From Verrucomicrobiota bacterium (GTDB lineage: Bacteria > Verrucomicrobiota > Verrucomicrobiia > Opitutales > Coraliomargaritaceae), in NCBI GenBank assembly GCA_039815375.1, contig JBCBZJ010000006.1, positions 67,873 to 131,872 of the forward strand: 64,000 nt of DNA. The letters run 5' to 3'. A program made the translations under genes and the position numbers. Positions 33,581-52,243 of the stretch are shown here, piece by piece (within the stretch, counting starts at the first letter, position 1; every line of letters starts with the position of its first letter). The notes below the pieces were generated by a model. The model worked only from the letters and a program-made list of their open reading frames with translations. It made no database searches and was not told the DNA's origin.

Positions 33581-34024
33581 ATGAGAGAGGCAAAAAACAC
33601 CGCAAGAGCTACCGTTCACATCGGATATGATGGGCGAGTCCATAAACATTTCAAAGGGCCTCAGGCTCGTGAGCGTTTTGAGAACGAGGTTCGTGTCCTC
33701 GATTTCCTCGACCAACACGGCTGCCACTTTGTGCCGAAGATCCTTTCTCGAAAAGATGACGAGCTTTACCTCGTGACGAGCAACTGCGGCGGACGCGTTG
33801 ATCATGTCAGTGATGAAAAAAAACGTCAAATCTTTGCCGAGTTAGAGCAGTTTGGCGTGCGCCACGATGATGCAGAAGTGCGTAATATTACTTACAGCCA
33901 ACGACTTGGGCGGTTTTGTGTGATTGATTTCGAGTTCGCGACTATACTTTTGCCCGGATACCCTACGCCTCCCGAGATGAAATCTGTTGCAAACCGCTCG
34001 GAATGGCAGACAGAGAGCAAATAG
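33581..34024 (+). CDS. Minimal protein-kinase-like fold protein
   Basis: VHKHFK (beta3 Lys), FENEVRVL (alphaC Glu), HDDAEVRN (HxDxxxxN), IDFEFA; only 147 aa. Confidence 0.7.
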   Translation: MREAKNTARATVHIGYDGRVHKHFKGPQARERFENEVRVLDFLDQHGCHFVPKILSRKDDELYLVTSNCGGRVDHVSDEKKRQIFAELEQFGVRHDDAEVRNITYSQRLGRFCVIDFEFATILLPGYPTPPEMKSVANRSEWQTESK

Positions 34025-34027
34025 GCT

Positions 34028-34867: not shown

Positions 34868-34902
34868 GTTTATTGAATCGGATTGACGTTTGGGAGATAG
34901 TG

Positions 34903-34920
34903 ATTTTGATTAATCAAAAT
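34903..34920. promoter_or_regulatory. Perfect 18-bp palindrome, putative metal-repressor operator
   Basis: ATTTTGATT/AATCAAAAT abutting the ATG at 34921, downstream of TTGACG (34883-34888). Confidence 0.7.
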
Positions 34921-35904: not shown

Positions 35905-35995
35905 CCAGATGAATCAGAATTGTATTCTTAGATTTGCTTAGAGCAGATTGAATCGGATGGTTAAGATTGGGAAAAGAGTAAGAGAAGAAATTAGC

Positions 35996-36802
35996 ATGAG
36001 TGCGGTATCCAATGAGCAAATACAATACGAGTCATTAGAGCCTTCCGGTGCGCTACCGCTCTTTGTGCGTGACTTAACTGTAGCCTATCACCGTAAGCCT
36101 GTTGTCTGGGATATCGATCTGTCGATACCCGAAGGGAAGTTAGTCGGGCTGATTGGGCCGAATGGAGCAGGGAAGAGCACTTTGCTCAAAGCTTGTATGG
36201 ATTTGATTCCGAAAACTTCGGGTGAGGTATCTATCTTTGGTGTTCCTTACGCCAAGCAGCTCCGTCGTGTCGGCTATGTGCCACAACGCGAGAGCGTGGA
36301 TTGGGACTTTCCAGTTAGCGTGCTTGATGTCGTTGCGATGGGCACTTACGGAGAGCTCGGCTGGTTTCGCCGTGTGAACCGGCGCTCAAAGGCCTTAGCC
36401 ATGCAAGCCCTGGAGAGGGTTGGGCTTGAAGAATACGCTGACCGTCAGATTAGTCAGCTTTCCGGAGGGCAGCAGCAACGCACATTTCTTGCCAGAGCAT
36501 TGGTGCAGGACGCTGATATCTATTTTATGGACGAGCCGTTTGCAGCGGTCGATGCCGCGACAGAACAGGCTATCGTTCAACTCCTCAAAGACCTACAGTC
36601 GCGCGGCAAGACCTGTCTGGTGGTTCACCATGACCTGGCAACGGTTCCTCAGTATTTTGATTGGTTGGTCTTGTTGAATATGCGCATTGTTGCCAGTGGC
36701 CCGACCAAGGAGGTCTTCAATAAGGAGAACTTACGTAAAACATACGGTGGTAAATTGACTCTGCTTAGTGAGGCAGCTGAAGAGTTAATGCGTTCACTCT
36801 AA
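35996..36802 (+). CDS. Metal ABC transporter ATPase (TroB-like)
   Basis: GPNGAGKS, YVPQR, LSGGQQQR, MDEPF, VHHDL. Confidence 0.95.
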   Translation: MSAVSNEQIQYESLEPSGALPLFVRDLTVAYHRKPVVWDIDLSIPEGKLVGLIGPNGAGKSTLLKACMDLIPKTSGEVSIFGVPYAKQLRRVGYVPQRESVDWDFPVSVLDVVAMGTYGELGWFRRVNRRSKALAMQALERVGLEEYADRQISQLSGGQQQRTFLARALVQDADIYFMDEPFAAVDAATEQAIVQLLKDLQSRGKTCLVVHHDLATVPQYFDWLVLLNMRIVASGPTKEVFNKENLRKTYGGKLTLLSEAAEELMRSL

Positions 36803-36808
36803 TCGCCA

Positions 36809-37303
36809 ATGTTTAATTTGGTTCGAGCTGATTTAAGCAAAGATACCCATAGCGTTGCATTGGTAGAATTGCTGGATCTCTATGCGCGGGATTTAATGGG
36901 CGGGGGTGTGGCGCTTTCGGATTATACGAGACAGAACCTTCCTGCAGAGCTTCACGGCCGCTCGGGTTGTCATGTGGTGCTCGCCTTTTCGGGAGAGATA
37001 CCTGCTGGTATTGCGATCAACTTTGAGGCTTTCTCGACTTTCGCCTGCAGGCCGATCCTCAATATTCATGATTTCATGATCGCTCCAATGTTTCGGGGGC
37101 AGGGCTTGGCAAAGCAGCTCCTTGAAGAGATTGAAATTATCGCTAGGGAGCTTGGTTGCTGTAAGCTTACACTTGAGGTTCTAGAGGGGAACGAGCGTGC
37201 AAAGAAAATTTACAAGCGGTTCGGATTTGACGGTTATGAGCTCGACCCAGCAGCAGGAAGAGCGCTCTTTTTTGATAAGAAGCTGTCTCTGGAAAACAGA
37301 TAA
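36809..37303 (+). CDS. GNAT family N-acetyltransferase
   Basis: LNIHD, FRGQGLA, LEVLEGN...YKRFGF. Confidence 0.9.
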   Translation: MFNLVRADLSKDTHSVALVELLDLYARDLMGGGVALSDYTRQNLPAELHGRSGCHVVLAFSGEIPAGIAINFEAFSTFACRPILNIHDFMIAPMFRGQGLAKQLLEEIEIIARELGCCKLTLEVLEGNERAKKIYKRFGFDGYELDPAAGRALFFDKKLSLENR

Positions 37304-38655
37304 TGATGGAAGCGTCTGATGTTATCAACGTTCTGTTGCTCCGCGATTACAATACGCGGCTTGTTGTAATCTGCACGCTTCTCTTGGGCTGTGTTTGCGG
37401 GTTAATGGGCGGTTTTCTTTTGCTGCGTAAACGTTCTCTGATGGGGGATACTCTTTCGCATGCCACACTACCCGGAGTAGGCCTGGCGTTTATCATAGCA
37501 GTTTTACTTGGCGGTGATGGTAAGTCGCTGCCGATACTTCTGATCGGTGCAACCACCACAGGGGTGATCGGTTGTTGGGCGGTGCTCTTCATTCGAAACA
37601 ATTCCCGGATCAAGGATGATGCTGCCATGGGAATTGTGCTGAGTGTTTTCTTCGGAGCCGGCGTCGCGGTGCTTGGCTTTGTCCAGTCCATGCCGGAGGG
37701 CAGTGCTGCAGGCTTGGAATCTTTCATTTACGGGAAGACGGCTTCGATGATTCTGGCCGACTTTCAAGTTCTCATCGGAGTTACTGTTGGAGTGCTCTTA
37801 CTTTCGGTTCTTCTCTTCAAGGAGTTCAGGCTCCTTTGTTTCGACGAGACTTTCGCGGCTGCTCAAGGCTGGCCGGTAAAGTGGTTGGATGTCCTGTTGC
37901 TCGCGTTGGTCACCTTGGTTACAGTGGCTGGCCTTCAAGCTGTGGGTTTGATCCTAATCATTGCCTTCCTTATCACTCCGGCAGCCGCTGCGCGTTTTTG
38001 GTCGGAGCGGCTTGATCGTATCTTGTTTCTTTCTGCTTTGATTGGAGGGTTCAGCGGATGGTTTGGTGCGAGTGTGAGCGCGTTCTTTCCCCGAATGCCG
38101 GCAGGGGCCGTTATCGTGCTTGTCGCTGCAGCTTGTTTCCTTCTGAGCATGTTGTTGGGGAGTGAGCGGGGAGTGCTGGTTCGTGTCTTACGTCAGGCAA
38201 GTTTGAAGCGGAATGTCGGCAGGCAACATCTCCTTCGAGCGCTTTACGAAATCCTCGAGGCTGATGCCGCAGATAGTGAAACTGTTTCCATTCATCCTGT
38301 TCCGTTTCGCCAAGTCCGCGGCCGTAGAACATGGAGTGACCAGCAATTACGCCGTTATATCCGAAAGGCTTATCAAGACGGCCTCATCAATGCTCTGGAC
38401 GACGACAACATCATTTTGACGGAAGCTGGTTTAGGGGAAGCTGCAAAGGTTACACGCAATCACCGACTGTGGGAGATCTATTTGATTGAGTATGCTGATG
38501 TGGCGACGAGTCGAGTGGATCGTGATGCCGACACTGTAGAGCATGTTCTTGGCGAGAAGCTGGTTGTGACTTTGGAAACTAAACTTTTGCAGTTGCGGGA
38601 AGCTGGGAGCCATGCCGTCCCGGCTAGTCCGCATCCAATCCGGACGGGAGACTAG
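37303..38655 (+). CDS. Metal ABC permease fused to C-terminal DtxR/MntR-like domain
   Basis: GDTLSHATLPG permease motif; C-terminal LTEAG...RNHRLWEIYL...DADTVEH. Confidence 0.88.
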   Translation: MMEASDVINVLLLRDYNTRLVVICTLLLGCVCGLMGGFLLLRKRSLMGDTLSHATLPGVGLAFIIAVLLGGDGKSLPILLIGATTTGVIGCWAVLFIRNNSRIKDDAAMGIVLSVFFGAGVAVLGFVQSMPEGSAAGLESFIYGKTASMILADFQVLIGVTVGVLLLSVLLFKEFRLLCFDETFAAAQGWPVKWLDVLLLALVTLVTVAGLQAVGLILIIAFLITPAAAARFWSERLDRILFLSALIGGFSGWFGASVSAFFPRMPAGAVIVLVAAACFLLSMLLGSERGVLVRVLRQASLKRNVGRQHLLRALYEILEADAADSETVSIHPVPFRQVRGRRTWSDQQLRRYIRKAYQDGLINALDDDNIILTEAGLGEAAKVTRNHRLWEIYLIEYADVATSRVDRDADTVEHVLGEKLVVTLETKLLQLREAGSHAVPASPHPIRTGD

Positions 38656-38660
38656 TAGGT

Positions 38661-39590
38661 ATGGAATGGTATGTTATAGATACGTGGATTGTGGTGATCG
38701 GTGTGCTTGCGAGCGTGTCCTGTGCGCTACTGGGCAATTTCCTCGTGCTGCGAAAGATGAGTATGATGGGTGATGCGATCAGTCATGCGGTGCTGCCAGG
38801 GCTTGCGATTGCCTTTTTGTTTACGGGTGCCCGCACAAGCTTCAGCATGTTTGTTGGTGCTGCCATCGTCGGGCTATTAACTGCAGTGTTCACGCACTGG
38901 ATCAGTCGCTTTGGAAACGTCGATCAAGGTGCATCCATGGGAATCGTTTTTACAACGCTTTTCGCTTTCGGGCTCTTGCTCATTGTTCAAGCGGCAGATC
39001 ATGTCGATTTGGATCCCGGTTGTGTGCTTTACGGTGCGATTGAATTAACACCACTTGATGTGGTTTGGCGGCCTGAAGTCTTTAGCCTCTCTTTAGGAGT
39101 GCCCCGTGCTGCGCTTGTTCTCGGAGGAGTTCTTCTGCTCAACACATCATTCGTTCTGCTCTTTTTCAAGGAGCTCCGAATATCATCATTTGATCCAGAG
39201 CTTGCTACAACGACAGGAATCAACGCAAACCTGATGCACTATCTGCTAATGATTTTTGTAGCGATTACGACCGTGGCTGCATTTGAAGTCGTGGGCAGTA
39301 TCATTGTGATCGCAATGCTCATTGTTCCAGCTGCAGCTGCCCATCTCCTGACGGATCGTCTTGGTGTGATGGTTGTGATCAGTGCAATTTTAGGGGCGCT
39401 TGCGGCGATCTTCGGCCATTTGAGTGCTCTTTTAGTGCCCGGCTGGTTTGGCTATGAAAGCACTTCGACCTCGGGGATGACAGCTGTTGTTGCCGGACTT
39501 ATTTTCACAGCAGTGCTTTTCTGTGCTCCACGGCATGGTGTTCTGATTCGGCTGAAGAGGGCTTATGGAAAGACGCCTCGCATATCATAG
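38661..39590 (+). CDS. Metal ABC permease (TroD-like)
   Basis: GDAISHAVLPG, FKELRISSFDP. Confidence 0.93.
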   Translation: MEWYVIDTWIVVIGVLASVSCALLGNFLVLRKMSMMGDAISHAVLPGLAIAFLFTGARTSFSMFVGAAIVGLLTAVFTHWISRFGNVDQGASMGIVFTTLFAFGLLLIVQAADHVDLDPGCVLYGAIELTPLDVVWRPEVFSLSLGVPRAALVLGGVLLLNTSFVLLFFKELRISSFDPELATTTGINANLMHYLLMIFVAITTVAAFEVVGSIIVIAMLIVPAAAAHLLTDRLGVMVVISAILGALAAIFGHLSALLVPGWFGYESTSTSGMTAVVAGLIFTAVLFCAPRHGVLIRLKRAYGKTPRIS

Positions 39591-40888
39591 ACTTTTGCGA
39601 TGTGCTCAAGTGCAGAGGCGTAGGATGCAATTCGCATGTTGCAGTCAAGACGTTCAGCAGTATCCAAAACGCGCTCTGCTGCTCGAGTCATGATCTTGCG
39701 TAGGCGTTCATCCACGAGTTCTTCCTCCCATGTTTCGGACTGGCGATTCTGTTTCCATTCGAAGTAGCTTACCGTCACGCCGCCTGCGTTACATAGAATC
39801 GCTGGTAGCACTTCGACGCCTTGATCGAGGAGGTAGCGCTCAGCTTTTGGTGTAGTGGGAGCATTAGCCGCTTCGACCAGAACTTTGCATTGCATTTTTT
39901 CGGCGTGCTCCAAATCGACCATCTGCTCCAGGGCAGCCGGAATAAACAGATCCACGGGAGTTGAGTAGAACTGGTCTTCATCGATCATCTCACTATTTTC
40001 ATAGCCGGAAACCCCTCCGTTCTTTTCGACGTAGTTTGCGAGTTCTTCGGCGTCGATGCCGGATTCGTTGTAAATCGCTCCGGTGTGGTCCATGACTGCT
40101 TTCAGTCTCGAGCCTTTTGCTTTCAGGAGACGTGCAGTCCAGGAACCGACATTACCGAAACCGATGAGGCTATAGCTTTGTTTCGAGATATCGAGCCCCA
40201 TGCCAGGCAGCAGGGCTTCAAGGACATAGACCAGACCTTGGCCGGTCGCTTTTTCGCGGCCTTCCGAGCCACCGAATTCAAGAGGTTTACCGGTGACAAC
40301 ACCGCGTGCGGTCACTTTGGTCGAAGACTCGGCAAAATTGATGTAGGTATCGGCCATCCATGCCATGGTCTGGGAATTGGTGCCTACATCGGGTGCGGGA
40401 ATATCATAGTCAGGTCCGATGTTGTTGCCCAGTGCAGCCGTCAGGCGGCGGGTGACACGTTCTAGTTCGGAAGGGCTGACGGCTCTCGGGTTAATCTTTA
40501 AAGCGCCCTTGGCTCCACCGTAGGGCAGCCTGGCAAGCGCACACTTCATCGTCATGAGCAACGATAGTGTCTTTACTTCGTCAAGCTTGACCTCGTGGTG
40601 ATAGCGGATGCCGCCTTTGTATGGGCCGAGCACATTATTGTGTTGCACGCGGTAGCCCTTAACGAGTTGCCATGTGCCATCGTCCATCTCGACAGGGCAG
40701 TGGACCATGATCTCGTTTTTTGGCTGCGTCATGATCAGCTTAAGCTTGTGCGGCAGGTTCAGAATATTGGCCGCTTCCAAAACAGAACCAATAGTTTGGA
40801 AATACAAGTTGTCGTCATCGTAATACTCCTCCAATTCTTGGAAGATCTCACGTGCGGATTGGCAGGCGGGGGTATCGCAGGATTCCAT
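39563..40888 (-). CDS. gdhA: Glu/Leu/Phe/Val dehydrogenase (glutamate dehydrogenase)
   Basis: GPYKGGIRY, GGAKG, DIPAPDVGT, VTGKP, GFGNVG, NAGGVTVSYFEW. Confidence 0.9.
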   Translation of the reverse strand: MESCDTPACQSAREIFQELEEYYDDDNLYFQTIGSVLEAANILNLPHKLKLIMTQPKNEIMVHCPVEMDDGTWQLVKGYRVQHNNVLGPYKGGIRYHHEVKLDEVKTLSLLMTMKCALARLPYGGAKGALKINPRAVSPSELERVTRRLTAALGNNIGPDYDIPAPDVGTNSQTMAWMADTYINFAESSTKVTARGVVTGKPLEFGGSEGREKATGQGLVYVLEALLPGMGLDISKQSYSLIGFGNVGSWTARLLKAKGSRLKAVMDHTGAIYNESGIDAEELANYVEKNGGVSGYENSEMIDEDQFYSTPVDLFIPAALEQMVDLEHAEKMQCKVLVEAANAPTTPKAERYLLDQGVEVLPAILCNAGGVTVSYFEWKQNRQSETWEEELVDERLRKIMTRAAERVLDTAERLDCNMRIASYASALEHIAKVYDMRGVFP

Positions 40889-41013: not shown

Positions 41014-42519
41014 CTAGATCAATTGAAGCGATTCCATTGCTTCGTGATTCAGCATGGACTGTTTTTCGGCACTTTCGCTTGGCCGTAAATCTTCGTCATA
41101 GCTCGGAATTATTGCTTTCATTCTAGCATGGGAATCCGCGCCTTTGAGCTTTTCGTCAAAGCACTTCCGAATGACTTCGACAATAATGTTGGTCGAAACA
41201 GAGGCTCCGGGAGAAGCGCCGAGGAGTGCAGAGAGACTTCTGTCGGCATCGGTCACGACTTCTGTGCCGAAATGAACAATACCGGCATCGCCGTCTTCCT
41301 TTTTGATTGCCTGCACACGGATGCCTGCATCGATCAGTTTCCAGTCTTCTTCCTTTGCGTCGGGGAAGAAATTTTGAAGCTCACTCATACGCGTGGTCAT
41401 GCTTTGCGTGCCTTGTTGAATCAAGTAACGAACCAGTGGAATATTATGTATACCAACCTTTATCAGAGAGCCGATATTGTCCGACCGAATCGATCCGGGC
41501 AGGTCGAGCATACTTCCTTTCTCATGTAGGAATTTTGTCGTCCATGCGGCATAGGGTCCAAAGAGAAGGGCCTTTTTGCCATCGATGATTCGGGTGTCAA
41601 GGTGAGGGACTGCCATGGTTGGGGCAGCGCCCGGTGACATGCCATAGACCTTGGCGTTGTGCTGCTCGACAAGCTCTGCTTTATCGGAGACCAACCACTG
41701 GCCACCGATTGGAAAACCACCGAAACCTTTGGCCTCTGCGATTCCGGATTTCTGCAGAAGCGGAAGGCTGCCACCACCCGCGCCGATGAAGACGAACTTA
41801 GCGGTGTTCTTAAACCTTGCGCCGGTATCGAGGTTCTTAACCTCCGCGTCCCAGCCTCCATCTGCATTGCGAGTCAGATCAGTGACGCGGTGAAGAGTTG
41901 CGAATCCACAACCTTCCTGCTTGCCAAGCCATTGAATGAGCAGACTCGCTAGTGAACCAAAATTGACATCGCTGCCGTGAGCCATGCGTGTCATTGCGAC
42001 AGGCTCGTCCGGGTCTCGGCCTTCGAGGATAAGCGGTGCCCACTGGCGGATTTGATCGCGATCCTCAGTGTATTCCATGTCACTGAAGAAATGATGGGCG
42101 GACATCTGGCGATGCCGTGAGCGAAGAAAGTCAACCTGCTCCTGACCATAAACGAAGCTGAGGTGAGGCACTGGATTAATGAAATCCTTTGGATTTTCGA
42201 TCATTCCCCTGCGGATCGCGTAGCCCCAAAACTGGAGGGATTGCTCGAACTGATTGAAAATCTCAATTGCTTTACTAACGTCCACTTCACCGTCTTTTCC
42301 GTAGTTCGGCGTGTAGCTGAGTTCGCAAAGGCCTGCGTGTCCGGTGCCTGCATTGTGCCAACCGTTAGAGGCCTCGTCCGCAAGCCCTTCGGTGCATTCG
42401 TAGAGCTGGATCTTCAATGAAGGATCCATCTCTTTTAATACGGCACCGAGCGTAGCTGACATGATACCGCTACCGATCAGAATGATGTCAGGATTATCAA
42501 TGTGGTCTTCGCTTTTCAT
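41014..42519 (-). CDS. mqo: Malate:quinone oxidoreductase
   Basis: IGSGIMSATL, WHNAGTGHAGLCELSY, FIGAGG, MAVPHLDTR, AGIRVQ, LLGASPGAS. Start at ATG 42519. Confidence 0.95.
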   Translation of the reverse strand: MKSEDHIDNPDIILIGSGIMSATLGAVLKEMDPSLKIQLYECTEGLADEASNGWHNAGTGHAGLCELSYTPNYGKDGEVDVSKAIEIFNQFEQSLQFWGYAIRRGMIENPKDFINPVPHLSFVYGQEQVDFLRSRHRQMSAHHFFSDMEYTEDRDQIRQWAPLILEGRDPDEPVAMTRMAHGSDVNFGSLASLLIQWLGKQEGCGFATLHRVTDLTRNADGGWDAEVKNLDTGARFKNTAKFVFIGAGGGSLPLLQKSGIAEAKGFGGFPIGGQWLVSDKAELVEQHNAKVYGMSPGAAPTMAVPHLDTRIIDGKKALLFGPYAAWTTKFLHEKGSMLDLPGSIRSDNIGSLIKVGIHNIPLVRYLIQQGTQSMTTRMSELQNFFPDAKEEDWKLIDAGIRVQAIKKEDGDAGIVHFGTEVVTDADRSLSALLGASPGASVSTNIIVEVIRKCFDEKLKGADSHARMKAIIPSYDEDLRPSESAEKQSMLNHEAMESLQLI

Positions 42520-42538
42520 TTTAGTCTTGTGGATTTTG

Positions 42539-44020
42539 TTAGCGGCTAGCCATTCGGGTAAACTTCTCTTTGGCCTCGTTCCAGATTTCTTTATCTGCGG
42601 GTTCGTAAGATTCAACCAACGATGAGTTGAGGACCACTTCACGCCCCTCGGCAATGTCTTTAATGGAGCCATCGCTCAGCATCTGCACAAGGATATTGCC
42701 TAGTCCGGTCGCTTCGACAGGACATGCTGCGACTCTTGTGCCGATAGCGTTGGCGGCGAATTGGTTGAGTAACTTGTCCTGACAACCTCCACCCACGATA
42801 TGAAGTGTGGTCGGTGGTGTCTGCGTGTATTTCATGAGCAATTCCCATACTTGAGCATAGCGCAGCGCAAGGCTCTCGTAGACACAGCGGATGATTTGCC
42901 CCTTGGTTTCGGGTAAGGGCTGTTCGGTGTCCCTGCAGTATTGTTGAATCTTCTCGGGCATACGTCCTGCGTCTGCGAAGAGTTTGCTATCAGGATTGAT
43001 TAGGGACCTGAACGGCTCTGCATCGGCTGCTAATGATGCCATTTTAGCGTAGGGCACGTCCTCACCCTCGGCTTTCCAGTATCGTCTGGATTCCTGAATG
43101 AGCCAGAGGCCACAGATGTTCTTTAGGAACCGGATCTTTCCATCTACACCGACTTCATTGGTGAATGCATCGGCGAAGGATTCGTCATTTATGACCGGTT
43201 CAGGTAGCTCTAGCCCCATCAGTGACCATGTGCCGCTACTTAGATATGCCGGTGTGTCTGCTTTACTTGGGACTGCGGCAACTGCACTTGCAGTATCATG
43301 CCCGGCGACAGTGACAACTTTGACACCGCTGAGTCCGGTCTGCTCAGAAACGTAGGGGGTGAGTTCACCTAGAATGTCTCCAGGGTCGCTTATCTCTTTG
43401 AAGAGACGTGTCGGGATGCCGAGTTTTTCAATGAGTTCGTAGTCCCAGTTCTTGGTTTTCGGGTTATAGAGCTGCGACGTGCTGGCGATGCTGCGCTCCT
43501 GAGTTTTGTTGCCCGTAAGCCAGTAGCCCAAAAGATCCGGAGTGAAGAGTAAGTCTTCAGCAGACTCGATCGCAGGGTTTTTCAACTCAACTTCAGACAG
43601 GATCTGATAGAGGGAGTTGAAGAACATAAACTGGATGCCCGTCGCTTTGTAAATGGAGTCATTGCCGACGAGTTCATCGGCTCGACTCATCATCGCATCG
43701 GTGCGATTGTCACGATATTGGTAGGGAAGGCCGAGCAGGCGGCCATGTTTGTCGATCAGTCCGTAGTCGACGCCCCAGCTGTCGATGCCCAAGCTCACGA
43801 CGGCGCTGCCGAAGCGTTCGGCTGCCAGCGTCAATCCTTCGAGAATGTTCTGGTGAAGGTTGGTTGTGTTCCAATGCCACCCGGATGGAAGTTGAACCGG
43901 TGTGTTATCGAAGCGGTTCAGTTCGTGAAGTTCAATGCGAGTTCCGTCGAATTCACCGGCGAGGACACGTCCACTGCCTGCTCCGAGATCAACTGCAAGA
44001 TAGACTTTGTTAAGGCTCAT
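42539..44020 (-). CDS. rhaB: Rhamnulokinase/fuculokinase (FGGY kinase)
   Basis: DLGAGSGR, GIDSWGVD, HDTASA, SSGTWSL, TNE, KNICGLW, EATGLGN. Confidence 0.88.
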   Translation of the reverse strand: MSLNKVYLAVDLGAGSGRVLAGEFDGTRIELHELNRFDNTPVQLPSGWHWNTTNLHQNILEGLTLAAERFGSAVVSLGIDSWGVDYGLIDKHGRLLGLPYQYRDNRTDAMMSRADELVGNDSIYKATGIQFMFFNSLYQILSEVELKNPAIESAEDLLFTPDLLGYWLTGNKTQERSIASTSQLYNPKTKNWDYELIEKLGIPTRLFKEISDPGDILGELTPYVSEQTGLSGVKVVTVAGHDTASAVAAVPSKADTPAYLSSGTWSLMGLELPEPVINDESFADAFTNEVGVDGKIRFLKNICGLWLIQESRRYWKAEGEDVPYAKMASLAADAEPFRSLINPDSKLFADAGRMPEKIQQYCRDTEQPLPETKGQIIRCVYESLALRYAQVWELLMKYTQTPPTTLHIVGGGCQDKLLNQFAANAIGTRVAACPVEATGLGNILVQMLSDGSIKDIAEGREVVLNSSLVESYEPADKEIWNEAKEKFTRMASR

Positions 44021-44035
44021 TAGGGTAGTGGACTT

Positions 44036-44797
44036 CTATTCAGCGATGATGACCGAGCAGTCGGCGGCAACGAGTTCACGGATTACAGTAGGATCAGCTG
44101 CATTGTCGGTAATGATTTTTGAGAGCTGGTTAACGCCTGCGAAGAAATACTCCGAGCGCTGATTTAATTTGGTCGAATCAACCAACAGGATGACTTCGTC
44201 GGCAAATTGCACCAGCCGCTCTTTGAAGGTAGCTTGCTGCTCGAAGCCTTCACTGGCGCCACGCACAGCGTCGAAACCGATACTGGAGATGAAGGCGGTG
44301 TTGATGTTGTGACGACGAAGCGTATCGATACTATCCCCACCAACAAAAGTTTGGGTCTTTGGGTGATAGCGACCGCCGGTGCAAATGAGTTCCAATTGCT
44401 CCCGTCCGATAAGTTGGTCGATCACCGCATAGGCATTGGTCACTACACGGTAGGGCAGGTCGGGGAGAGTGAAGATGAGCTCTAAAACGGTGGTGCTGCT
44501 ATCGAAGGCATAGGTGCAGCCAGGTTGGATAAGCTCAACCGCCGCTTGTGCAATGGCACGTTTTTTCTCCACGTTAATCGAGCGGCGTTCAGTGAAGGAT
44601 TGTAGCTTCGGCCGTCCGTTCAGATTGCTGGCACCGCCGTGAATGCGTGCGAGCTGGCCATTCTCCGCGAGGTTTTGCAGGTCACGACGAATCGTTTCGT
44701 CGGTAACTTGGAATTCCTCTGCCAAGTCGATGGTTCGGACAGTTCCACGTTCTTCCAGCAGGGTGAGTATTTGCTGCTGACGTTCTAGGGCTAACAT
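44036..44797 (-). CDS. DeoR/GlpR family transcriptional regulator
   Basis: VTDETIRRDL HTH, RIHGGA, DSSTT, VVTN. Confidence 0.95.
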   Translation of the reverse strand: MLALERQQQILTLLEERGTVRTIDLAEEFQVTDETIRRDLQNLAENGQLARIHGGASNLNGRPKLQSFTERRSINVEKKRAIAQAAVELIQPGCTYAFDSSTTVLELIFTLPDLPYRVVTNAYAVIDQLIGREQLELICTGGRYHPKTQTFVGGDSIDTLRRHNINTAFISSIGFDAVRGASEGFEQQATFKERLVQFADEVILLVDSTKLNQRSEYFFAGVNQLSKIITDNAADPTVIRELVAADCSVIIAE

Positions 44798-44808
44798 ACG
44801 CCTAAAAG

Positions 44809-44882
44809 TTGGATTTATTTGGGTTTATGCAAGATTTATGTTGACTTTGGGCTTAAAAAATTGGGTTTTGCCACAAATCCAA
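44809..44882. promoter_or_regulatory. Divergent promoter region with repeated TTGG(A/G)(T/C)TT boxes (putative DeoR operators)
   Basis: Copies at 44809, 44819, 44847 and 44861, an inverted copy AAATCCAA at 44875, and TTGACT at 44841. Confidence 0.6.
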
Positions 44883-44891
44883 AGATTTCTA

Positions 44892-45575
44892 ATGGCTGCT
44901 GCGACCAACCCCTCTCTCAACCGAGCCCAAATTGCCCAACTTGTGCGCGAGAGCCTGCGTCGGCATTCCCGGAAAAGTGATGTTTCCGAGCCCTTTCAAG
45001 GTCCCAATCCACTGGTTGTTAACATCAGCGCGCGTCATTGCCATTTGTCTCAGCAATCCGTTGAGGTTTTGTTCGGAAAAGGCCATCAGCTCACACCCAA
45101 GAAGTGGCTGTATCAGGAAGGTCAATACGCCGCTGAGGAGTCCGTTACACTAATTGGTCCGCGTAGTCGCGTAATTTCAAATCTTCGCATTCTTGGGCCA
45201 TGCCGTGATTTTGACCAGATTGAGCTCGCTTCGACAGACGCCATCTCACTGGGCTTCAAGATCCCGGTTAAGAACTCAGGCGATATTAAGGGCACACCTG
45301 GTTGCATGCTGATGGGGCCAGCTGGTTTTCTCAAGATGAACGAGGGTGTGATCCGCGCTGCACCGCATGTTCACATGGCACCTGAGGACGCAAAATTTTA
45401 CGGTGTGGAGAATAAGTCCTTTATGAAACTACGCGTCGGCGGCGATGTTGGTGTGACTTTTGACCGCATTTTCGTTCGCGTCGATCCTTCCTTCAAACTC
45501 GAGGTTCATATCGATACGGACGAAGGTAATGCCTGCGGTTTCAGCTCGGATACACCGTGTGAACTCCTCAAGTGA
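44892..45575 (+). CDS. pduL: PduL-type phosphate acyltransferase with N-terminal encapsulation peptide
   Basis: ISARHCH, LGPCR, HVHM, HIDTDEGNA; N-terminal RAQIAQLVRESL helix. Start at ATG 44892. Confidence 0.92.
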   Translation: MAAATNPSLNRAQIAQLVRESLRRHSRKSDVSEPFQGPNPLVVNISARHCHLSQQSVEVLFGKGHQLTPKKWLYQEGQYAAEESVTLIGPRSRVISNLRILGPCRDFDQIELASTDAISLGFKIPVKNSGDIKGTPGCMLMGPAGFLKMNEGVIRAAPHVHMAPEDAKFYGVENKSFMKLRVGGDVGVTFDRIFVRVDPSFKLEVHIDTDEGNACGFSSDTPCELLK

Positions 45576-45656
45576 GGGTGCTTTGCTCTGAATTTTAATA
45601 CCACATTCTAGTTTCTTTTTAGATCAACACATTGATAACACGAACCCAAACACACT

Positions 45657-45926
45657 ATGAGTGAATCCATCGGATTAGTAGAAACCAAAGGCCTCACTGG
45701 CTCGATTGAAGCAAGTGATGCTATGGCAAAGGCAGCATCTGTCAGCCTTGTTAAACAAATCTCTATTGGCGGCGGTTTTTTGACCGTTCTTGTCAAGGGA
45801 GATGTCGGTAGCGTCAAAGCTGCTGTAGAAGCTGGTGCCGAAGCTGCAAATAGCGTCGGTGAACTGGTCGCGTCGCACGTCATCGCACGTCCGCACGACG
45901 ACCTTCTCAAGTATTTTGAAGCATAA
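45657..45926 (+). CDS. BMC-H shell protein
   Basis: [32 protein letters not shown]. Confidence 0.96.
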
Positions 45927-45949
45927 CCCGAAGAAGGGAGAACAATACC

Positions 45950-46228
45950 ATGGCCAAAGAAGCAATTGGAATGATCGAATGTAAGGGGCTTGTCAGCCTT
46001 ATGGAAGCTAGTGATGCAGCACTTAAGTCTGCTGACGTCAAAATGACCGGTTGGGAAAAGATCGGAAGCGGTCTTGTTACCGGTTTCTTTACCGGTAACG
46101 TTGCTGCAGTTAAAGCTGCGGTCGAAGCAGGTGCAGACGCGGCAGGTCAAATCGGCGAAGTTGTCGCTGTGCAAGTGATTCCACGTCCTCACGACGACCT
46201 TGTTAAGCTCGGCAGCTGGATTGGATAA
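45950..46228 (+). CDS. BMC-H shell protein
   Basis: AIGMIECKG, DAALKSA, GNVAAVKAAV, VIPRPH. Confidence 0.96.
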   Translation: MAKEAIGMIECKGLVSLMEASDAALKSADVKMTGWEKIGSGLVTGFFTGNVAAVKAAVEAGADAAGQIGEVVAVQVIPRPHDDLVKLGSWIG

Positions 46229-46253
46229 TTACTGAAACATCCTCGTTGATGGC

Positions 46254-47438
46254 ATGAAGATCCTCGTCGCCAATCTAGGCTCCACTTCCTTTAAGTATCG
46301 TCTCTATGATATGAGAGATGCAGTGGCCAACATGTTGGCTAAGGGTGGATTTGAGCGTGTGACTGAATACACACCGTGTATTGAGGAAATGCTCAAGACC
46401 TTGATCGACGATGGTCATCTCGTATCCGGCGAAGATTTGGATGCAGTCGGTTTCAAAACCGTTCTTGGTAAAGATCTAAGTGGATGTGTCGAAGCAGATG
46501 ATAGAGTTCTGGTAGCTCTCGATGGTTTCAAGGAAGTTGCTCCTGCACACAATCCAGCCTACGCGGAAGGCATCCGTTGCTTCCAGAGAAAGCTGCCGGA
46601 CGTCACTCGCGTGGCACTTTTTGAGACTGCTTTCTTCCAGTGGGTCCCTTCGGCATGGACAACCTATGCCATTCCAAAAGAGTGGCGTGAACTCGGCATC
46701 CGCCGCTACGGTTTCCATGGTGCCAGTCATAAGTTCATCGCTGAACGTTCGGCTGAGCTTTACGGAAATGATGTCGTTGCGGATCGTGCGCGTGGCCTCT
46801 ACGTAGACGGCCCGGTTGACTACTCCGGTGCTCCGCTTCGTGTGATCTCCTGCCATCTTGGTGGCAGTAGTTCCGTAGTTGGTATCAACAGCGGCGTAGC
46901 AATTGGCTCCAGTATGGGCTTCAGCCCACAGAGTGGGCTACCACAGAACAATCGCGTTGGTGATCTCGACTCCATGGCGATTCCATACGTCAACAAGATG
47001 TTAGGACTCCCTGTCGAGGAGGCGGAACGTCAGCTCAACAAGGAAAGTGGATTATTGGGTCTTTCCGGTTTGAGCAACGATGCCCGTGATATCCGTGATG
47101 CGACAATCGAAGGTAATGGAGACGCGCAATTAGCGACTGATGTGTTGATCGACAGTATTCGCCATTGGGCCGGCTCCTTTTTCTTCAGGATGGGGGGCGC
47201 AGAAGTCATTTCATTTACCGCTGGTATCGGCGAGAATGATACGAAGCTTCGTGCAAAGGTCTGCGAAGGCCTTGAAGACCTCGGTGTTATCATTGACCCG
47301 GTTGCTAACGAAGCGACCGTCCGTGGCGCTGAAGGGTTTATTAGTGCGCCCGAATCCAAAATCAAAGTATGCGTCATACCAGCGAATGAAGAGCTCGTGA
47401 TCGCCCGTGAAGTATATCGTTTCAAAGAAGCAGGCTAA
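46254..47438 (+). CDS. ackA: Acetate/propionate-family kinase (BMC-associated)
   Basis: NLGSTSFK, APAHN, RYGFHGASH, CHLGG, FTAGIGEN, ANEELVIA. Confidence 0.9.
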   Translation: MKILVANLGSTSFKYRLYDMRDAVANMLAKGGFERVTEYTPCIEEMLKTLIDDGHLVSGEDLDAVGFKTVLGKDLSGCVEADDRVLVALDGFKEVAPAHNPAYAEGIRCFQRKLPDVTRVALFETAFFQWVPSAWTTYAIPKEWRELGIRRYGFHGASHKFIAERSAELYGNDVVADRARGLYVDGPVDYSGAPLRVISCHLGGSSSVVGINSGVAIGSSMGFSPQSGLPQNNRVGDLDSMAIPYVNKMLGLPVEEAERQLNKESGLLGLSGLSNDARDIRDATIEGNGDAQLATDVLIDSIRHWAGSFFFRMGGAEVISFTAGIGENDTKLRAKVCEGLEDLGVIIDPVANEATVRGAEGFISAPESKIKVCVIPANEELVIAREVYRFKEAG

Positions 47439-47481
47439 TTTAACTCACCTAAAAGACTAAAAATTTAACCACAAAAAAATC

Positions 47482-47784
47482 ATGGCAAAACAAGCAATAG
47501 GAATCCTAGAAACAAAGGGCCTGATCGCCCTCGTCCAAGGCACGGACGCAATGCTCAAATCAGCTAATGTTGAACTCACCGGCCCGATGAAGGGTATCGG
47601 TAGCGCACTCGTTAATGCTGTTGTCACCGGCGATGTTGCCGCAGTTAACGCAGCTATCGAAGCGGGTGCTGAAATGGCTGGCCGCTACGGCGAAGTCGTT
47701 AGCGCTCACGTCATTGCACGCCCACATGATGATACCGATATGGTGATTCCCGGTGCAAAGTCTAAGCGCGCAACCGCTAAATAA
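47482..47784 (+). CDS. BMC-H shell protein
   Basis: AIGILETKG, DAMLKSA, GDVAAV, HVIARPH. Confidence 0.96.
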   Translation: MAKQAIGILETKGLIALVQGTDAMLKSANVELTGPMKGIGSALVNAVVTGDVAAVNAAIEAGAEMAGRYGEVVSAHVIARPHDDTDMVIPGAKSKRATAK

Positions 47785-47792
47785 TTCTCTCA

Positions 47793-48107
47793 ATGTATCT
47801 TGGTAAAGTCATCGGTTCCGTCGTATCGACGAAGAAGGACGACAGTATGCGTGGGCGTAAGCTCCTCATGGTGCGCCCGATGTTGATCGATCCGGAAGAC
47901 GCTGCGAAGTTTAAGCCCGGCGGTAATACGATCATTGCAATCGATACGCTGGGCGCAGGCGAAGGCGAGTTGGTGATGTTTGCCCAGGGTAGCTCCGCCC
48001 GCCAGGCCGATGGTCTCAAGACTATGCCGGTGGACGCTGCGATTGTCGGTATCGTCGACACTGTCAGCGTGCAAGGGGCCAAAACCTACGAAGCGAGTAA
48101 GAGCTAA
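47793..48107 (+). CDS. BMC-P (EutN/CcmL) vertex protein
   Basis: GKVIGSVVSTKK, AIDTLGAGEGE, GSSAR, DAAIVGIVD. Confidence 0.95.
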   Translation: MYLGKVIGSVVSTKKDDSMRGRKLLMVRPMLIDPEDAAKFKPGGNTIIAIDTLGAGEGELVMFAQGSSARQADGLKTMPVDAAIVGIVDTVSVQGAKTYEASKS

Positions 48108-48127
48108 GAGCGAGAAAGGAATTATTC

Positions 48128-49579
48128 ATGAGTCAATTGAGTGAAGACGCGATCCGCGATGTTGTAACTGAAGTTCTTTCAAAGCTTCAGACGCCGACAC
48201 CTGTCTCCGTCGCAACACCTGCAATCAAGGTAAGCGCTGCTAAGCACGGTGTCTTTGACGATGCCAAAAGTGCCGCCAAGGCTGCGCGCGGTGGCTTCAA
48301 GCAACTGAAAAAGGCCGGTTGGGCCGGACGTGTCAAGGTCATCGATATCGTGAAGCAAATGTGCTCCGACAACGCTGACCGATGGGGTAAGATTGAATTC
48401 GATGAAACGCAGATCGGGCGCCTCGACCACAAGATCGCCAAGCTACACGGTATCAGGAACGTGCTCGGCACCGAGTTCCTTACGCCATATGGAATGAGCG
48501 GCGACGCCGGTATTACGATGGAAGAGTTTGCGCCTTGGGGAGTGATCGGAAGCATTACTCCGGTGACGCATTCCGTGCCGACTATTGCCGGTAACATCGT
48601 TAACATGGTTGCTGCGGGCAACTCCATTGTCTTCAACCCGCACCCTGGTGGTGCCGCTTGTGCTGCCTTTGCGATTAATGAATTCAACGAAGCAATCAAG
48701 GCAGAGACCGGTATAGAAAACCTAATCTGCACGATTGAGAAGCCATCACTTGATTCCTTCAATGAGCTTTGTGCTTCCGAAGACGTGAATCTCCTGTGCA
48801 TCACCGGCGGTCCAGCTGTGGTTGATGCCGCGATGAAGACCGGCAAGCGGGCAATTTGCGCCGGTCCCGGTAACCCACCTGTTGTAGTTGACGATTGCCA
48901 TGCGCTCGACTTCGACAAAGTGGCAAAAGACATCATCCTCGGCGGCGGTTTCGATAACAACCTTCTCTGCATCGGTGAAAAACAAATTATTGCTGTAGCT
49001 GACAGCTACAAGAAGACACTCGATGCGCTCAAGCGTAACGGAGCTGTGGTCCTGAACAAGATGCAGACCGAGAGGATCAAGAAAGAGGTCTTCGATTTTA
49101 AAGACGGTGACGGTGGCTGCTCGCACGCGGTTCTGAACCGCGAGTATGTTGGTGCAGATCCGGTCAAGCTTGCGAAGATTGCCGGTCTCAAAATCGATCC
49201 AAAGGTTGAGATGCTTATTGCTGAGACGGCAGAAGACGATGTCTTTGTCGATGAAGAGCAAATGATGCCGCTTCTGCCGATTGTTCGCGCCGGTTGCTTT
49301 AATGACGCCATTCGTATTGCGAAGGATTCCGAGCACGGCTACAAGCACTCTGCTATGGTCCACACCATGAACGTCGCCAATATGACAAAGATGGGGCAGG
49401 CCATGGATACCACTCTTTACGTGAAGAACGGACCCTGTGTGGCCGGGCTTGGCATGGGTGGTGAAGGCTATATCAGCTTCTCCATCGCAACCACAACCGG
49501 TGAAGGCATCACGACGCCGAGGACATTTACCCGTTTCCGCCGATGTGCCCTCGTTGAGCAACTTAACATTATCGGCTAA
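48128..49579 (+). CDS. CoA-acylating aldehyde dehydrogenase (EutE/PduP type) with N-terminal encapsulation peptide
   Basis: SEDAIRDVVTEVLSKL helix; PWGVIGSITP, TGGPAVV, AGPGNPP, DNNLLCIGEK, GEGIT. Confidence 0.93.
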   Translation: MSQLSEDAIRDVVTEVLSKLQTPTPVSVATPAIKVSAAKHGVFDDAKSAAKAARGGFKQLKKAGWAGRVKVIDIVKQMCSDNADRWGKIEFDETQIGRLDHKIAKLHGIRNVLGTEFLTPYGMSGDAGITMEEFAPWGVIGSITPVTHSVPTIAGNIVNMVAAGNSIVFNPHPGGAACAAFAINEFNEAIKAETGIENLICTIEKPSLDSFNELCASEDVNLLCITGGPAVVDAAMKTGKRAICAGPGNPPVVVDDCHALDFDKVAKDIILGGGFDNNLLCIGEKQIIAVADSYKKTLDALKRNGAVVLNKMQTERIKKEVFDFKDGDGGCSHAVLNREYVGADPVKLAKIAGLKIDPKVEMLIAETAEDDVFVDEEQMMPLLPIVRAGCFNDAIRIAKDSEHGYKHSAMVHTMNVANMTKMGQAMDTTLYVKNGPCVAGLGMGGEGYISFSIATTTGEGITTPRTFTRFRRCALVEQLNIIG

Positions 49580-49833
49580 TGTTACATGCACGCATAGATG
49601 GCCATGCAACGGCCACGATCGCACACCCCAGCCTAAAGGGGCAGAAGATCGTTCTGTGCACACCGATTGATGAGAATGGCAACGATACTGGTTCGCCTTT
49701 CGCTGCAGTCGATCCAATCGGAGCCGGGCAGCACTCCAGAGTTTTTATTACCACGGATGGCTCCTGGACGCAGGATACGGTTCACGACGATAGCTCTCCC
49801 ATCCGTAACCAAGTGATCGGCATCATCGACTAA
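49579..49833 (+). CDS. BMC-P (EutN/CcmL) vertex protein
   Basis: HPSLKGQK, AVDPIGAG, VIGIID. Confidence 0.88.
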   Translation: MLHARIDGHATATIAHPSLKGQKIVLCTPIDENGNDTGSPFAAVDPIGAGQHSRVFITTDGSWTQDTVHDDSSPIRNQVIGIID

Positions 49834-50129
49834 TGAAACCCGGACGAGTCATCGGCACTGTAACCTTGAGCCAGGGAGCGCCACAGTTTCGTGGTGCGCG
49901 TTGGATTGTGGTGAGCCCAATGGGTAAAGAAGAGTTGTCGGGAAACAACACCGGCCTAAGCAAGGCTTCGACACCGGTCGTTTACGACAAAATGGGTGCC
50001 GGTGTTGGTGACGAAATTCTTTACGTCGAAGGCGCTGAAGCAACACAACCTTTTGAAGATCCCATTCCTCTTGACGCGATCAGCGTCGCGATACTCGACA
50101 ACTATCAATACGCGATCCCTGATGCGTAA
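49833..50129 (+). CDS. BMC-P (EutN/CcmL) vertex protein
   Basis: GRVIGTVTL, VYDKMGAGVGD, EGAEA, PLDA...AILD. Confidence 0.88.
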   Translation: MKPGRVIGTVTLSQGAPQFRGARWIVVSPMGKEELSGNNTGLSKASTPVVYDKMGAGVGDEILYVEGAEATQPFEDPIPLDAISVAILDNYQYAIPDA

Positions 50130-50140
50130 ATTTTAAGATT

Positions 50141-51229
50141 ATGAGCAAACTCTATACCGCAAAAGATCTCGAAAAGATGATCGAGCAGGGCCAGTGCCTT
50201 AGCACTGTCCCGGAAGATGCAAAGCTCACTCCGATGGCCCGCGATGTCCTTCGCAAGCATAAGGGTAAGGCGAAAACTGCTCCTGCCAGTTACGCATCTG
50301 CGGCCTCCGGTAGCCAACCGAAGATTCACGATCCGATTCTTCCGGACGCCGAATACAATTGGAAGCCAGGTGGCGACCCAAAGACTGCGGCCGAGCTCGA
50401 GAAGTTCTTTTATTCAGCAGAAATCCAAGCTCTCAAAGAGCGCATCTGCCATATCGGCAAACGAATTTGGAACAAAGGTTACGTCGATGGTAACGGCGGC
50501 AACATCACCGTTCGTGTCGGTGACAATCTCGTGCTCTGCACACCGACTCTGATTTCGAAGGGTTTTATGACTCCGGACGATATCTGCATGGTGGACCTCG
50601 ATGGAAACCAGGTTGCGGGCACACGACCGCGTACTTCCGAAGTGAATACACACCTTGGGATCATGAAGAATGAACCGAAAGCGAAGTCCTGCGTGCACGC
50701 TCATCCTGTCTACGCCACGGCCTTCGCAGTTGCCGGTGTGACACCTCCATCCTGCTTGATTCCAGAACCGGAAGTTTTCCTCGGTGAGATCGGTTTCGCC
50801 AGCTATCAAACTCCCGGCACTCCGGAAAATGCGCGTGAAGTCGGCCAGCTTGCCAAGAAGCACCAATCTATTCTGATGCAAAACCATGGCGTCATCTGTT
50901 GGGGGAAGGATGTTGAAGACGCCTACTGGAAGATGGAAAATACCGATGCCTTCTGCCAGACCGTCACAGTGACCATGCAAATTGGAGGTCCCAAGCAATA
51001 CGGCCCGGACAAGCTCAAGGAGCTCATTGAAATTCGCCAAAAGCTCGGCATGCCCGATCATCGTCTCGACGAACTCAAGGAATGCGAACTCTGCGATGCT
51101 GCTGAAGCGACCGTAAACACCGCTCCACAGCCGGCGGCTTGTGGGTGTGAGCTCAATTCTGCAAATAGCGACGATGCTGATGAGGCGCTCGTCCAGAAGA
51201 TTACTGATATGATCATGGAGAAGCTTTAA
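50141..51229 (+). CDS. Class II aldolase (fuculose/rhamnulose-1-phosphate aldolase) with extra N-terminal domain and C-terminal encapsulation peptide
   Basis: GNITVR, TPT, TSEVNTH, HAHP, QNHG; C-terminal EALVQKITDMIMEKL. Confidence 0.92.
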   Translation: MSKLYTAKDLEKMIEQGQCLSTVPEDAKLTPMARDVLRKHKGKAKTAPASYASAASGSQPKIHDPILPDAEYNWKPGGDPKTAAELEKFFYSAEIQALKERICHIGKRIWNKGYVDGNGGNITVRVGDNLVLCTPTLISKGFMTPDDICMVDLDGNQVAGTRPRTSEVNTHLGIMKNEPKAKSCVHAHPVYATAFAVAGVTPPSCLIPEPEVFLGEIGFASYQTPGTPENAREVGQLAKKHQSILMQNHGVICWGKDVEDAYWKMENTDAFCQTVTVTMQIGGPKQYGPDKLKELIEIRQKLGMPDHRLDELKECELCDAAEATVNTAPQPAACGCELNSANSDDADEALVQKITDMIMEKL

Positions 51230-51244
51230 ACTTTCGACCTATCA

Positions 51245-52243
51245 ATGAAATCCAAGACTCCTATCCGTGTCGCTGTCACCGGTGCAGCCGGTAATATCGG
51301 TTATGCGCTTCTCTTCCGCATCGCGTCCGGCCAGATGTTTGGCCCGGATCAGCCCGTTGCGCTCAACTTGATCGAAATCGAACCCGGTATGGCTGCGCTC
51401 AGAGGTGTCGCCATGGAGCTCGATGACTGCGCCTTTCCACTCCTTACCGAGATTGTTCAAACATCCGACTTGAGTGTTGGCTTCAAGGATGTCGATTGGG
51501 CACTTCTTGTCGGGTCCGTGCCTCGCAAGAAGGGTATGGAGCGTGCTGATCTTCTGGGTATCAACGGCAAGGTTTTTGTTGGCCAGGGTAAGGCAATCAA
51601 CGACAACGCCAAGAAAAGTGTGCGTGTCGTCGTTGTCGGTAATCCCTGCAACACAAATTGCCTCATCGCGATGAAGAGTGCTCCGGATATCCCGAACAGG
51701 CAGTTCTTTGCCATGACCCGTCTGGATGAGAACCGTGCCAAGACGCAGCTCGCCCAGAAAGCAGGTGTGCCGGTTCACGAAGTTTCCGGGCTTTGTGTGT
51801 GGGGCAACCATAGCCCTTCCATGTTCCCGGATTTCTATAACACCAGGATTGCCCGTCAAAAAGCCAACGATGTAATTGTCGATGAAGATTGGCTGAAGAG
51901 CACTTTCGTTCCGGATGTCGGCACACGCGGTGCCGCGATTATTGCAGCTCGCGGCGCTTCCTCGGCAGCTTCTGCAGCTAATGCTATTGTCGATACGGTT
52001 CGCGATTTGATGACACCGACCCGGAGTGACTACCATAGCGTTTGCGTGATTTCGAACGGTGAATACGACACACCGGCGGGCATTATAACTTCGCTTCCGG
52101 TCAAGGTCGACGCAGTAGGCAACTGGCGTGTTGTCGAAGACATCAAGTTGACCGACTACGCAAAGGAAAAGATTAAGGCCTCGAACGACGAGCTCCTCGA
52201 GGAACGCAAGGTTGCTTTCGGCCAACTCGGCCTAAGCTTCTAG
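51245..52243 (+). CDS. mdh: NAD-dependent malate dehydrogenase (cytosolic MDH1-like type)
   Basis: [43 protein letters not shown]. Confidence 0.93.

Follow-up and report, generated by a model that had tools for sequence, protein, structure and literature searches.

Candidate L-lactate-oxidising Mqo paralog and NAD+-recycling malate dehydrogenase paralog in a PVM-type microcompartment locus of a Verrucomicrobiota bacterium

The window analysed here, a 64,000-nucleotide stretch of a Verrucomicrobiota genome, carries at 41014..52243 a complete bacterial microcompartment (BMC) divergon of the PVM type, with deoR-rhaB-mqo opposite a long arm running from pduL to a class II aldolase gene and mdh. 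The locus type is the already known PVM fucose/rhamnose organelle of marine Verrucomicrobia. With a probability of about 0.57, comparative sequence data suggest that in this locus the Mqo paralog oxidises L-lactate, replacing LutABC, and that the malate dehydrogenase (MDH) paralog, mdhB, regenerates NAD+ by reducing oxaloacetate (OAA). The PVM microcompartment was reportedly first presented by Erbilgin and colleagues in 2014, for Planctomycetes and Verrucomicrobia. The window contains the class II aldolase with shell genes (three PF00936, three PF03319), the acylating aldehyde dehydrogenase, PduL, acetate kinase and a DeoR regulator. A lactate/malate dehydrogenase-family gene (PF00056/PF02866) replaces the iron-dependent alcohol dehydrogenase (Fe-ADH), and its clade differs from that of the usual PVM gene. 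Passages of Axen 2014 (PMC4207490), Sutter 2021 and Orellana 2021 (PMC8857213) describe the type. The named homologs of the locus proteins are of the Coraliomargaritaceae/Puniceicoccaceae type of Opitutales. The same divergon recurs in relatives, and therefore the arrangement is not due to chance.

In the proposed mechanism, RhaB would phosphorylate the deoxyketose and the aldolase would yield dihydroxyacetone phosphate and lactaldehyde, steps known for the family (Axen 2014). Conversion of lactaldehyde to lactate by aldehyde dehydrogenase, PduL and AckA is general to the PVM family. Here it is predicted to run through lactyl-CoA and lactyl-phosphate to L-lactate and ATP, with NADH formed. MdhB, which has a malate-type active site, would then reduce OAA to malate and give back NAD+, this direction and a place within reach of the NADH being presumed. 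Either the housekeeping MDH or the canonical malate:quinone oxidoreductase (MQO), whose genes lie on contig C21, would reoxidise malate, if flux runs that way. The locus Mqo, judging from gene swapping and sequence, would hand the electrons of lactate to quinone, and no carbon need leave as propanediol.

The source genome (G000; completeness 99.9%) was searched for enzymes with overlapping roles. A second mdh (66% identical to the locus mdh) and a second mqo (51% identical) form a divergent pair on C21. The original prediction, made from the letters of this DNA before any database search, had allowed for such housekeeping copies. Both locus genes are therefore dedicated paralogs, and the idea that they are the sole copies of the tricarboxylic acid (TCA) cycle was rejected for this genome. 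The canonical mqo and housekeeping mdh stand head to head at G000:C21:26743-29535 (L003, L004) and are not adjacent in the relatives fetched. LutB, LutC and LldD were not found in the source genome, which has no recognised respiratory L-lactate dehydrogenase though its pathway ends in lactate. In agreement with the prediction, there is no alcohol dehydrogenase in the locus; Fe-ADH was not found in the genome either, and a distal Fe-ADH was dropped as NADH sink. Two ADH_N-superfamily proteins are encoded elsewhere in the genome, and by eye, from known motifs, they would seem to resemble quinone/enoyl reductases. Malic enzyme was not found in the source genome, so that a malic-enzyme route for malate was discarded. 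It is present in 6 of the 61 genomes compared, a rarity that leaves housekeeping MDH as the likely malate oxidant, or canonical MQO in genomes that have it.

The case for lactate as the substrate of the locus Mqo begins with gene position. In trees, Mqo sequences fall into a canonical clade and a separate clade B, which includes the locus Mqo. The place after rhaB/deoR in 28 relative loci holds either a clade-B mqo or a gene trio of 257/464/202 aa. This trio, present there in nine relative loci, is LutABC (LutB scored 442 bits against a cut-off of 445). The same replacement was seen at the genome level. The 61-genome set comprised 29 genomes with the PVM aldehyde dehydrogenase and 11 others with RhaEW, together 40 pathway genomes, and 21 with neither. 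Exactly one of clade-B Mqo (15 genomes), LutB (21) and LldD (1) was found in 37/40 pathway genomes, and two together in 0/40. The other three had none of them (completeness 72%, 83% and 95%), the 72% one having lutA at a contig end. Among the 21 pathway-less genomes, clade B or LutB was found in none and LldD in one. Canonical Mqo was present in nine of the 61, alongside LutB in five and in pathway-less genomes in three. In 251 genomes of the phylum, a sample overlapping the 61-genome set, clade B was found in 25, LutB in 30 and both in one. Within the order the two were together in 1/50 genomes against 10 expected, a figure in which kin are not independent. The clade B/LutB state changed nine times on a 49-row aldehyde dehydrogenase tree, from which G009 and G033 were left out as incomplete. 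Six independent pairs on this tree gave five with the replacement, none against and one tie (p 0.0625).

Clade B also follows the deoxyhexose pathway outside microcompartments. Relatives without shell genes keep deoR-rhaB-mqoB opposite rhaEW; this shell-less divergon (L038, L039, L040, L041, L042, L044) often includes another class II aldolase gene and in some cases mdhB. According to the passages of Rodionova 2013 (PMC3870299) that bear on it, the RhaEW product is L-lactate, and lldD/lldEFG belong to RhaEW regulons. The PVM aldehyde dehydrogenase and RhaEW were never in one genome within the 61-genome set, and some loci of family f23 carry both. In that family clade B adjoins rhaB or rhaA in 9/10 loci, with mdh in 0/10. 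Among the best 80 of 547 named clade-B loci (not deduplicated against the other sets), 51 had a deoxyhexose gene within 8 kb; a BMC was present in 20, RhaEW in 24, mdhB in 8 and lut genes in 2.

The sequence of clade B was then compared with both known members of the family. Passages of Fuller 2011 (PMC3417369) describe the Staphylococcus aureus lactate:quinone oxidoreductase (Lqo) as an Mqo paralog using lactate only. The locus Mqo scored 597.7 against TIGR01320, above the cut-off of 549.95. The MQO substrate-region motifs ELNYT, PPMSVPH and AGQRVQ read ELSYT, PTMAVPH and AGIRVQ in clade B, so the substrate-region residues invariant in canonical MQO are not retained. The 23 canonical MQOs compared have 171 conserved sites, of which the 39 clade-B sequences change 17 and the three Lqo sequences 24; ten of these coincide, against 2.4 expected. 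Six subclades of true MQO, taken as controls, gave 0-4 overlaps with Lqo, the largest being 4 against 1.9 expected. The coinciding sites include Gln400 (the Gln before RVQ), which lies beside Arg401, and Ser303, which stands before the VPH motif and may, from motif spacing only, be the counterpart of L299 in L-2-hydroxyglutarate dehydrogenase (L2HGDH). Arg401 aligns to R393 of L2HGDH, the residue binding the distal carboxylate. As Lqo keeps it too, Arg401 was rejected as a malate marker. The structure model of clade B gave 9dm1 as top fold match (TM 0.74); its mean pLDDT was 64.7, with the substrate region below 50, and therefore no active-site reading was taken from it. Clade B as an ortholog of Lqo was rejected by the Lqo model NF040844 (515 vs 915 bits, where the control L225 scores 990) and by an approximately unbiased (AU) test. 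A lactate function would therefore be convergent. Taken together, these results suggest that clade-B Mqo is probably an independently evolved L-lactate:quinone oxidoreductase.

The original prediction had instead made the locus mqo the malate-oxidising partner of mdh, in a dedicated malate/oxaloacetate cycle carrying BMC NADH to quinone. This explanation, under which clade B might also oxidise malate and lactate alike, appears distinctly unlikely. In its favour, the divergon unites two dedicated paralogs; clade B scores above the MQO equivalog cut-off and has retained the Arg that corresponds to R393; and in seven streamlined genomes the mdhB/clade-B pair is all that was found. MQO is, moreover, thermodynamically the better malate oxidant. 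However, four genomes (G007, G008, G018, G022; 94-99% complete) carry the BMC with mdhB and have no Mqo at all, and therefore mdhB does not need Mqo. Clade B mostly occurs without mdh, just 8 of the best 80 of 547 loci having mdhB as its neighbour. Clade B is near-perfectly complementary to lactate dehydrogenases, not to MDH, replacing lutABC both in place and genome-wide, and the retained Arg, being kept in Lqo, is not diagnostic. The malate partnership of the locus mqo is not supported, while the other half of the prediction, that MDH reoxidises the NADH of the aldehyde dehydrogenase via OAA, is still the likeliest NAD+ recycling step.

The evidence for this step comes from the gene slot after the aldolase. 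Of 52 PVM loci read, four were cut and 48 readable. The gene following the aldolase was mdhB in 23, a lactate dehydrogenase (LDH)-like gene in 19 and neither in 6, so one of two unrelated dehydrogenases filled the slot in 42/48. All counts exclude sixteen loci with a distant aldehyde dehydrogenase (L177-L192), which represent a different BMC type. These loci, from distant Verrucomicrobiota families, have one BMC-H and three BMC-P genes with the aldehyde dehydrogenase, and genes which by eye resemble a sugar-phosphate isomerase fusion, phosphopentomutase and nucleoside phosphorylases. The source-locus mdhB and the LDH-like enzyme share about 22-24% identity and fall in unrelated clades of a quick tree whose root among MDHs is unreliable. 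For mdhB, the scores were 487.6 against NF003916 (cut-off 271) and 454 against TIGR01759 (cut-off 346), and its best PDB matches are MDHs. R94, R100, D161, R164 and H189, aligned to PDB MDHs, are invariant in 20/20 mdhB copies. R94 corresponds to Arg102 in LDH numbering, the relevant arginines being R94, R100 and R164. The full residue set of NAD-MDH (Arg102, Arg109, Asp168, Arg171, His195) is present in mdhB. By sequence the dehydrogenase is hence a malate-type enzyme rather than an LDH, as predicted from its arginines; the Arg of its MTRLD motif is not malate-specific, most housekeeping copies reading MTMLD. The LDH-like slot gene also has Arg102, where true LDH has Gln, in 5/5, 14/14 and, for Planctomycetota, 8/8 copies (27/27; nine Planctomycetota copies were found among 151 genomes and one near-duplicate was left out). 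Malate-type Arg102 was thus found in 47/47 slot copies checked (20 mdhB, 27 LDH-like). That the same slot has been filled by two unrelated enzymes, both of malate type, speaks for OAA as the acceptor for NADH.

One member of the LDH-like group has probably been characterised already. In the relevant passages of PMC10583557 (Robin 2023, citing Brochier-Armanet and Madern 2021), Planctopirus limnophila D5SXK9 is an LDH-clade enzyme with MDH activity, its tree neighbours being single sequences from Opitutus, Gimesia, Fuerstia, Isosphaera, Rhodopirellula and Pirellula. Its signature R173/D188/T190 was found in L197, a copy beside a PVM aldolase. Because both the neighbours and the signature match, we infer that D5SXK9 is the PVM-slot enzyme of Planctopirus. 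NAD+ recycling via OAA and malate, with malate reoxidised by housekeeping enzymes, is therefore proposed as likely to be general to PVM loci.

The published passages differ on this point. They predict that the lactate/malate dehydrogenase-family gene replaces the alcohol dehydrogenase, with propanediol made (PMC4207490; PMC8857213 supplement). For our locus such a reduction of lactaldehyde to 1,2-propanediol, or an action of the gene product as LDH, seems quite improbable. Arg102 is present in 47/47 copies checked, and the probable P. limnophila representative is recorded as having MDH activity. Enzymes of this family act on 2-oxo acids, not aldehydes. In its favour, a 408-aa zinc-dependent dehydrogenase (threonine/inosose dehydrogenase-like) is encoded after mdhB in five relatives (L015, L017, L022, L023, L025) and might reduce lactaldehyde there; the source locus, on the other hand, does not have it.

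A further possibility concerns the location of MdhB. The Mqo paralog could be the lactate oxidase while mdhB encodes a co-regulated MDH of the cytosol that would increase TCA or anaplerotic capacity on deoxyhexoses, without NAD+ recycling in the lumen and with NAD(H) handled otherwise. We hold this to be unlikely, since the terminal position of the shell operon went to two unrelated malate-type enzymes, in genomes that usually have a housekeeping MDH already. On its side are the termini of MdhB, which, as already noticed in the prediction, have no obvious encapsulation peptide. There is no extension beyond about 5 residues, and the helical moment (a crude measure) is 0.32-0.36, comparable to housekeeping MDH, whereas the extensions of aldolase, aldehyde dehydrogenase and PduL have 0.43-0.75. 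By its terminal peptide MdhB thus does not group with encapsulated cargo. In addition, mdhB is the sole MDH in eight genomes (the seven streamlined ones and G022), it occurs in shell-less RhaEW loci, and 6/48 PVM loci have neither mdhB nor the LDH-like gene. The shell-less cases suit a recycling role as well, because RhaEW also needs NAD+ regeneration.

The findings just given on termini, shell-less loci, empty slots and the zinc-dependent dehydrogenase also weigh against L-lactate oxidation by the Mqo paralog combined with NAD+ recycling by the MDH paralog, and they are joined by the following. In G012, G023, G029, G035, G121, G173 and G271 no MDH other than MdhB and no Mqo other than clade B was found; one of the two must therefore serve the TCA cycle in these streamlined genomes, a situation that agrees with MdhB being in part cytosolic or with clade B being bifunctional. 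The position of D5SXK9 in a PVM locus was deduced, not read. As regards lactate, clade B lies above the MQO cut-off and far below that of Lqo, most changed sites common to clade B and Lqo carry different residues, and clade B and Lqo as one clade were rejected (AU p 0.0086; quick tree, 19 rows). The independent-pair test is underpowered at p 0.0625. Clade B and lut genes occur together in G268, L079 and L090, and 29 of the best 80 of 547 clade-B loci have no deoxyhexose gene within 8 kb. Finally, the stand-alone Gln102 LDH on contig C47 of the source genome could oxidise lactate.

No proposal of malate/OAA recycling for PVM loci, and no lactate-oxidising Mqo beyond staphylococci, turned up in the open-access literature searched, subscription papers (among them Erbilgin 2014 and Sichert 2020) lying outside this scope. 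NAD+ regeneration in PVM loci without alcohol dehydrogenase has been a matter of prediction from 2014 onwards, and papers on marine fucoidan degraders continue to show a propanediol branch. Were the slot enzyme an MDH, no carbon would be lost as propanediol, and the organelle would use a metabolite shuttle, not internal dismutation. Clade-B records in Verrucomicrobia and Planctomycetota number hundreds and are labelled 'malate dehydrogenase (quinone)' wherever named; this clade is probably a lactate dehydrogenase. If so, the lactate reading would correct metabolic models and provide the second natural case of an Mqo-family enzyme switching from malate to lactate. A wider version can be put forward tentatively, at somewhat below even odds: the PVM class would balance NADH by a peroxisome-like malate/OAA shuttle across the shell, the drawn propanediol branch would be wrong, and a second L-lactate:quinone oxidoreductase would have arisen within the Mqo family, repeatedly replacing LutABC and allowing full oxidation of algal fucose and rhamnose.

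The left arm lies on the minus strand. The mqo gene (41014..42519; PF06039, TIGR01320) encodes the Mqo-family flavoprotein of clade B, a likely L-lactate:quinone oxidoreductase given its own clade, the swap with lutABC and the site changes common to Lqo; its true start is 42519 and its product has 501 aa (P0001). It is followed upstream by rhaB (42539..44020; FGGY_N/C), an FGGY kinase of the rhamnulokinase/fuculokinase type scoring 488 bits against TIGR02627, under the cut-off of 528, and by deoR (44036..44797; HTH_DeoR and DeoRC). The coordinates bear out the gaps of 15 and 19 bp reported earlier. In L008, L013, L014, L024, L025 and L026 this arm is extended by a ketohexokinase-family gene (PF25270) and DUF4432, and the PF25270 kinase may substitute for rhaB where the arm has none (G006, G022). 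The AT-rich intergenic region of 94 bp (44798..44891) presumably holds promoters and operators; a consensus scan gave no promoter-like site in it, and promoter/terminator scans gave no more sites than shuffled sequences.

The right arm lies on the plus strand. It starts with pduL (44892..45575; PF06130), a phosphotransacylase gene whose product has an N-terminal amphipathic, encapsulation-peptide-like helix (helical moment 0.75); the start at 44892 is presumed, the longest open reading frame starting at 44838. Then come BMC-H shell proteins 1 (45657..45926) and 2 (45950..46228), ackA (46254..47438; PF00871), an acetate/propionate-family kinase predicted to turn lactyl-phosphate into lactate and ATP, and BMC-H shell protein 3 (47482..47784), all three BMC-H matching PF00936. 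BMC-P vertex protein 1 (47793..48107) precedes the CoA-acylating aldehyde dehydrogenase (48128..49579; NF011927 above cut-off), which has an N-terminal amphipathic helix; BMC-P vertex proteins 2 (49579..49833) and 3 (49833..50129) follow, the three matching PF03319. The arm ends with the class II aldolase, the PVM signature enzyme (50141..51229; PF00596), and mdhB (51245..52243; above the cut-offs of NF003916 and TIGR01759, with 66% identity to its C21 counterpart and R94 in 20/20), a dedicated cytosolic-type NAD-malate dehydrogenase paralog and likely NAD+ recycler. The gene set and the mdh 15 bp after the aldolase had been given correctly; the order had not, ackA lying between the second and third BMC-H genes and the aldehyde dehydrogenase gene between the first and second BMC-P genes.

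Several neighbouring genes and further loci were noted. A glutamate dehydrogenase gene (window 39563-40888) follows mqo in the same orientation after 125 bp and is absent from that place in relative loci. A Mn/Zn ABC transporter operon (34873-39590) has a GNAT gene inserted and encodes a permease that carries a fused DtxR-type metal-binding domain, and at 33554-34867 a PP2C phosphatase gene comes directly after a small phosphotransferase-like gene. Elsewhere in the source genome, phage-tail-module-like genes with a tape-measure-like protein adjoin the stand-alone LDH (G000:C47:25203-33812, L007). No close FucI, RhaA or RhaI was found in that genome, which has a single GH29; the search gave no more than a distant fucose-isomerase-like protein, encoded at G000:C15:2139-3764 (L231). 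In Verrucomicrobiales, clade-B mqo is followed by a ROK-family kinase gene with no deoxyhexose gene nearby in ten loci (L092, L094, L095, L098, L101, L103, L114, L115, L126, L134). L224, L225 and L230 are records deposited as phage contigs with chromosomal-type mqo/lqo genes, and are probably host DNA.

Reductive MDH clears NADH while malate is reoxidised elsewhere in the MDH + MQO cycle of Corynebacterium and in the malate/oxaloacetate shuttles of peroxisomes and mitochondria. The step proposed here would resemble these; the barrier, however, would be a protein shell, and the oxidising partner probably the housekeeping MDH or MQO. Compared with other PVM microcompartments, the locus has the same class II aldolase, DeoR, acetate kinase, PduL, acylating aldehyde dehydrogenase and three BMC-H with three BMC-P, likewise a lactate/malate-family gene and no Fe-ADH, in the gene order of other Verrucomicrobia loci. 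It differs in having an unrelated MDH paralog of the cytosolic type where the LDH-like gene usually stands, and in that the left arm has clade-B Mqo where relatives have lutABC. D5SXK9 of P. limnophila is probably the usual slot dehydrogenase, whereas the source-locus mdhB belongs to an unrelated MDH clade; the passages on D5SXK9 draw no microcompartment link. Like S. aureus Lqo (Mqo2), clade B is an Mqo-family paralog beside a canonical Mqo with the same ten MQO-invariant sites changed, but it shares 41-43% identity with Lqo, and forms a separate clade with other replacement residues. Like LutABC, LldEFG and LldD in RhaEW regulons, it would add lactate oxidation to the rhamnose/fucose pathway from the same genomic place; whereas LutABC is a three-subunit Fe-S enzyme and LldD an FMN enzyme, clade B is a single FAD protein of the Mqo family.

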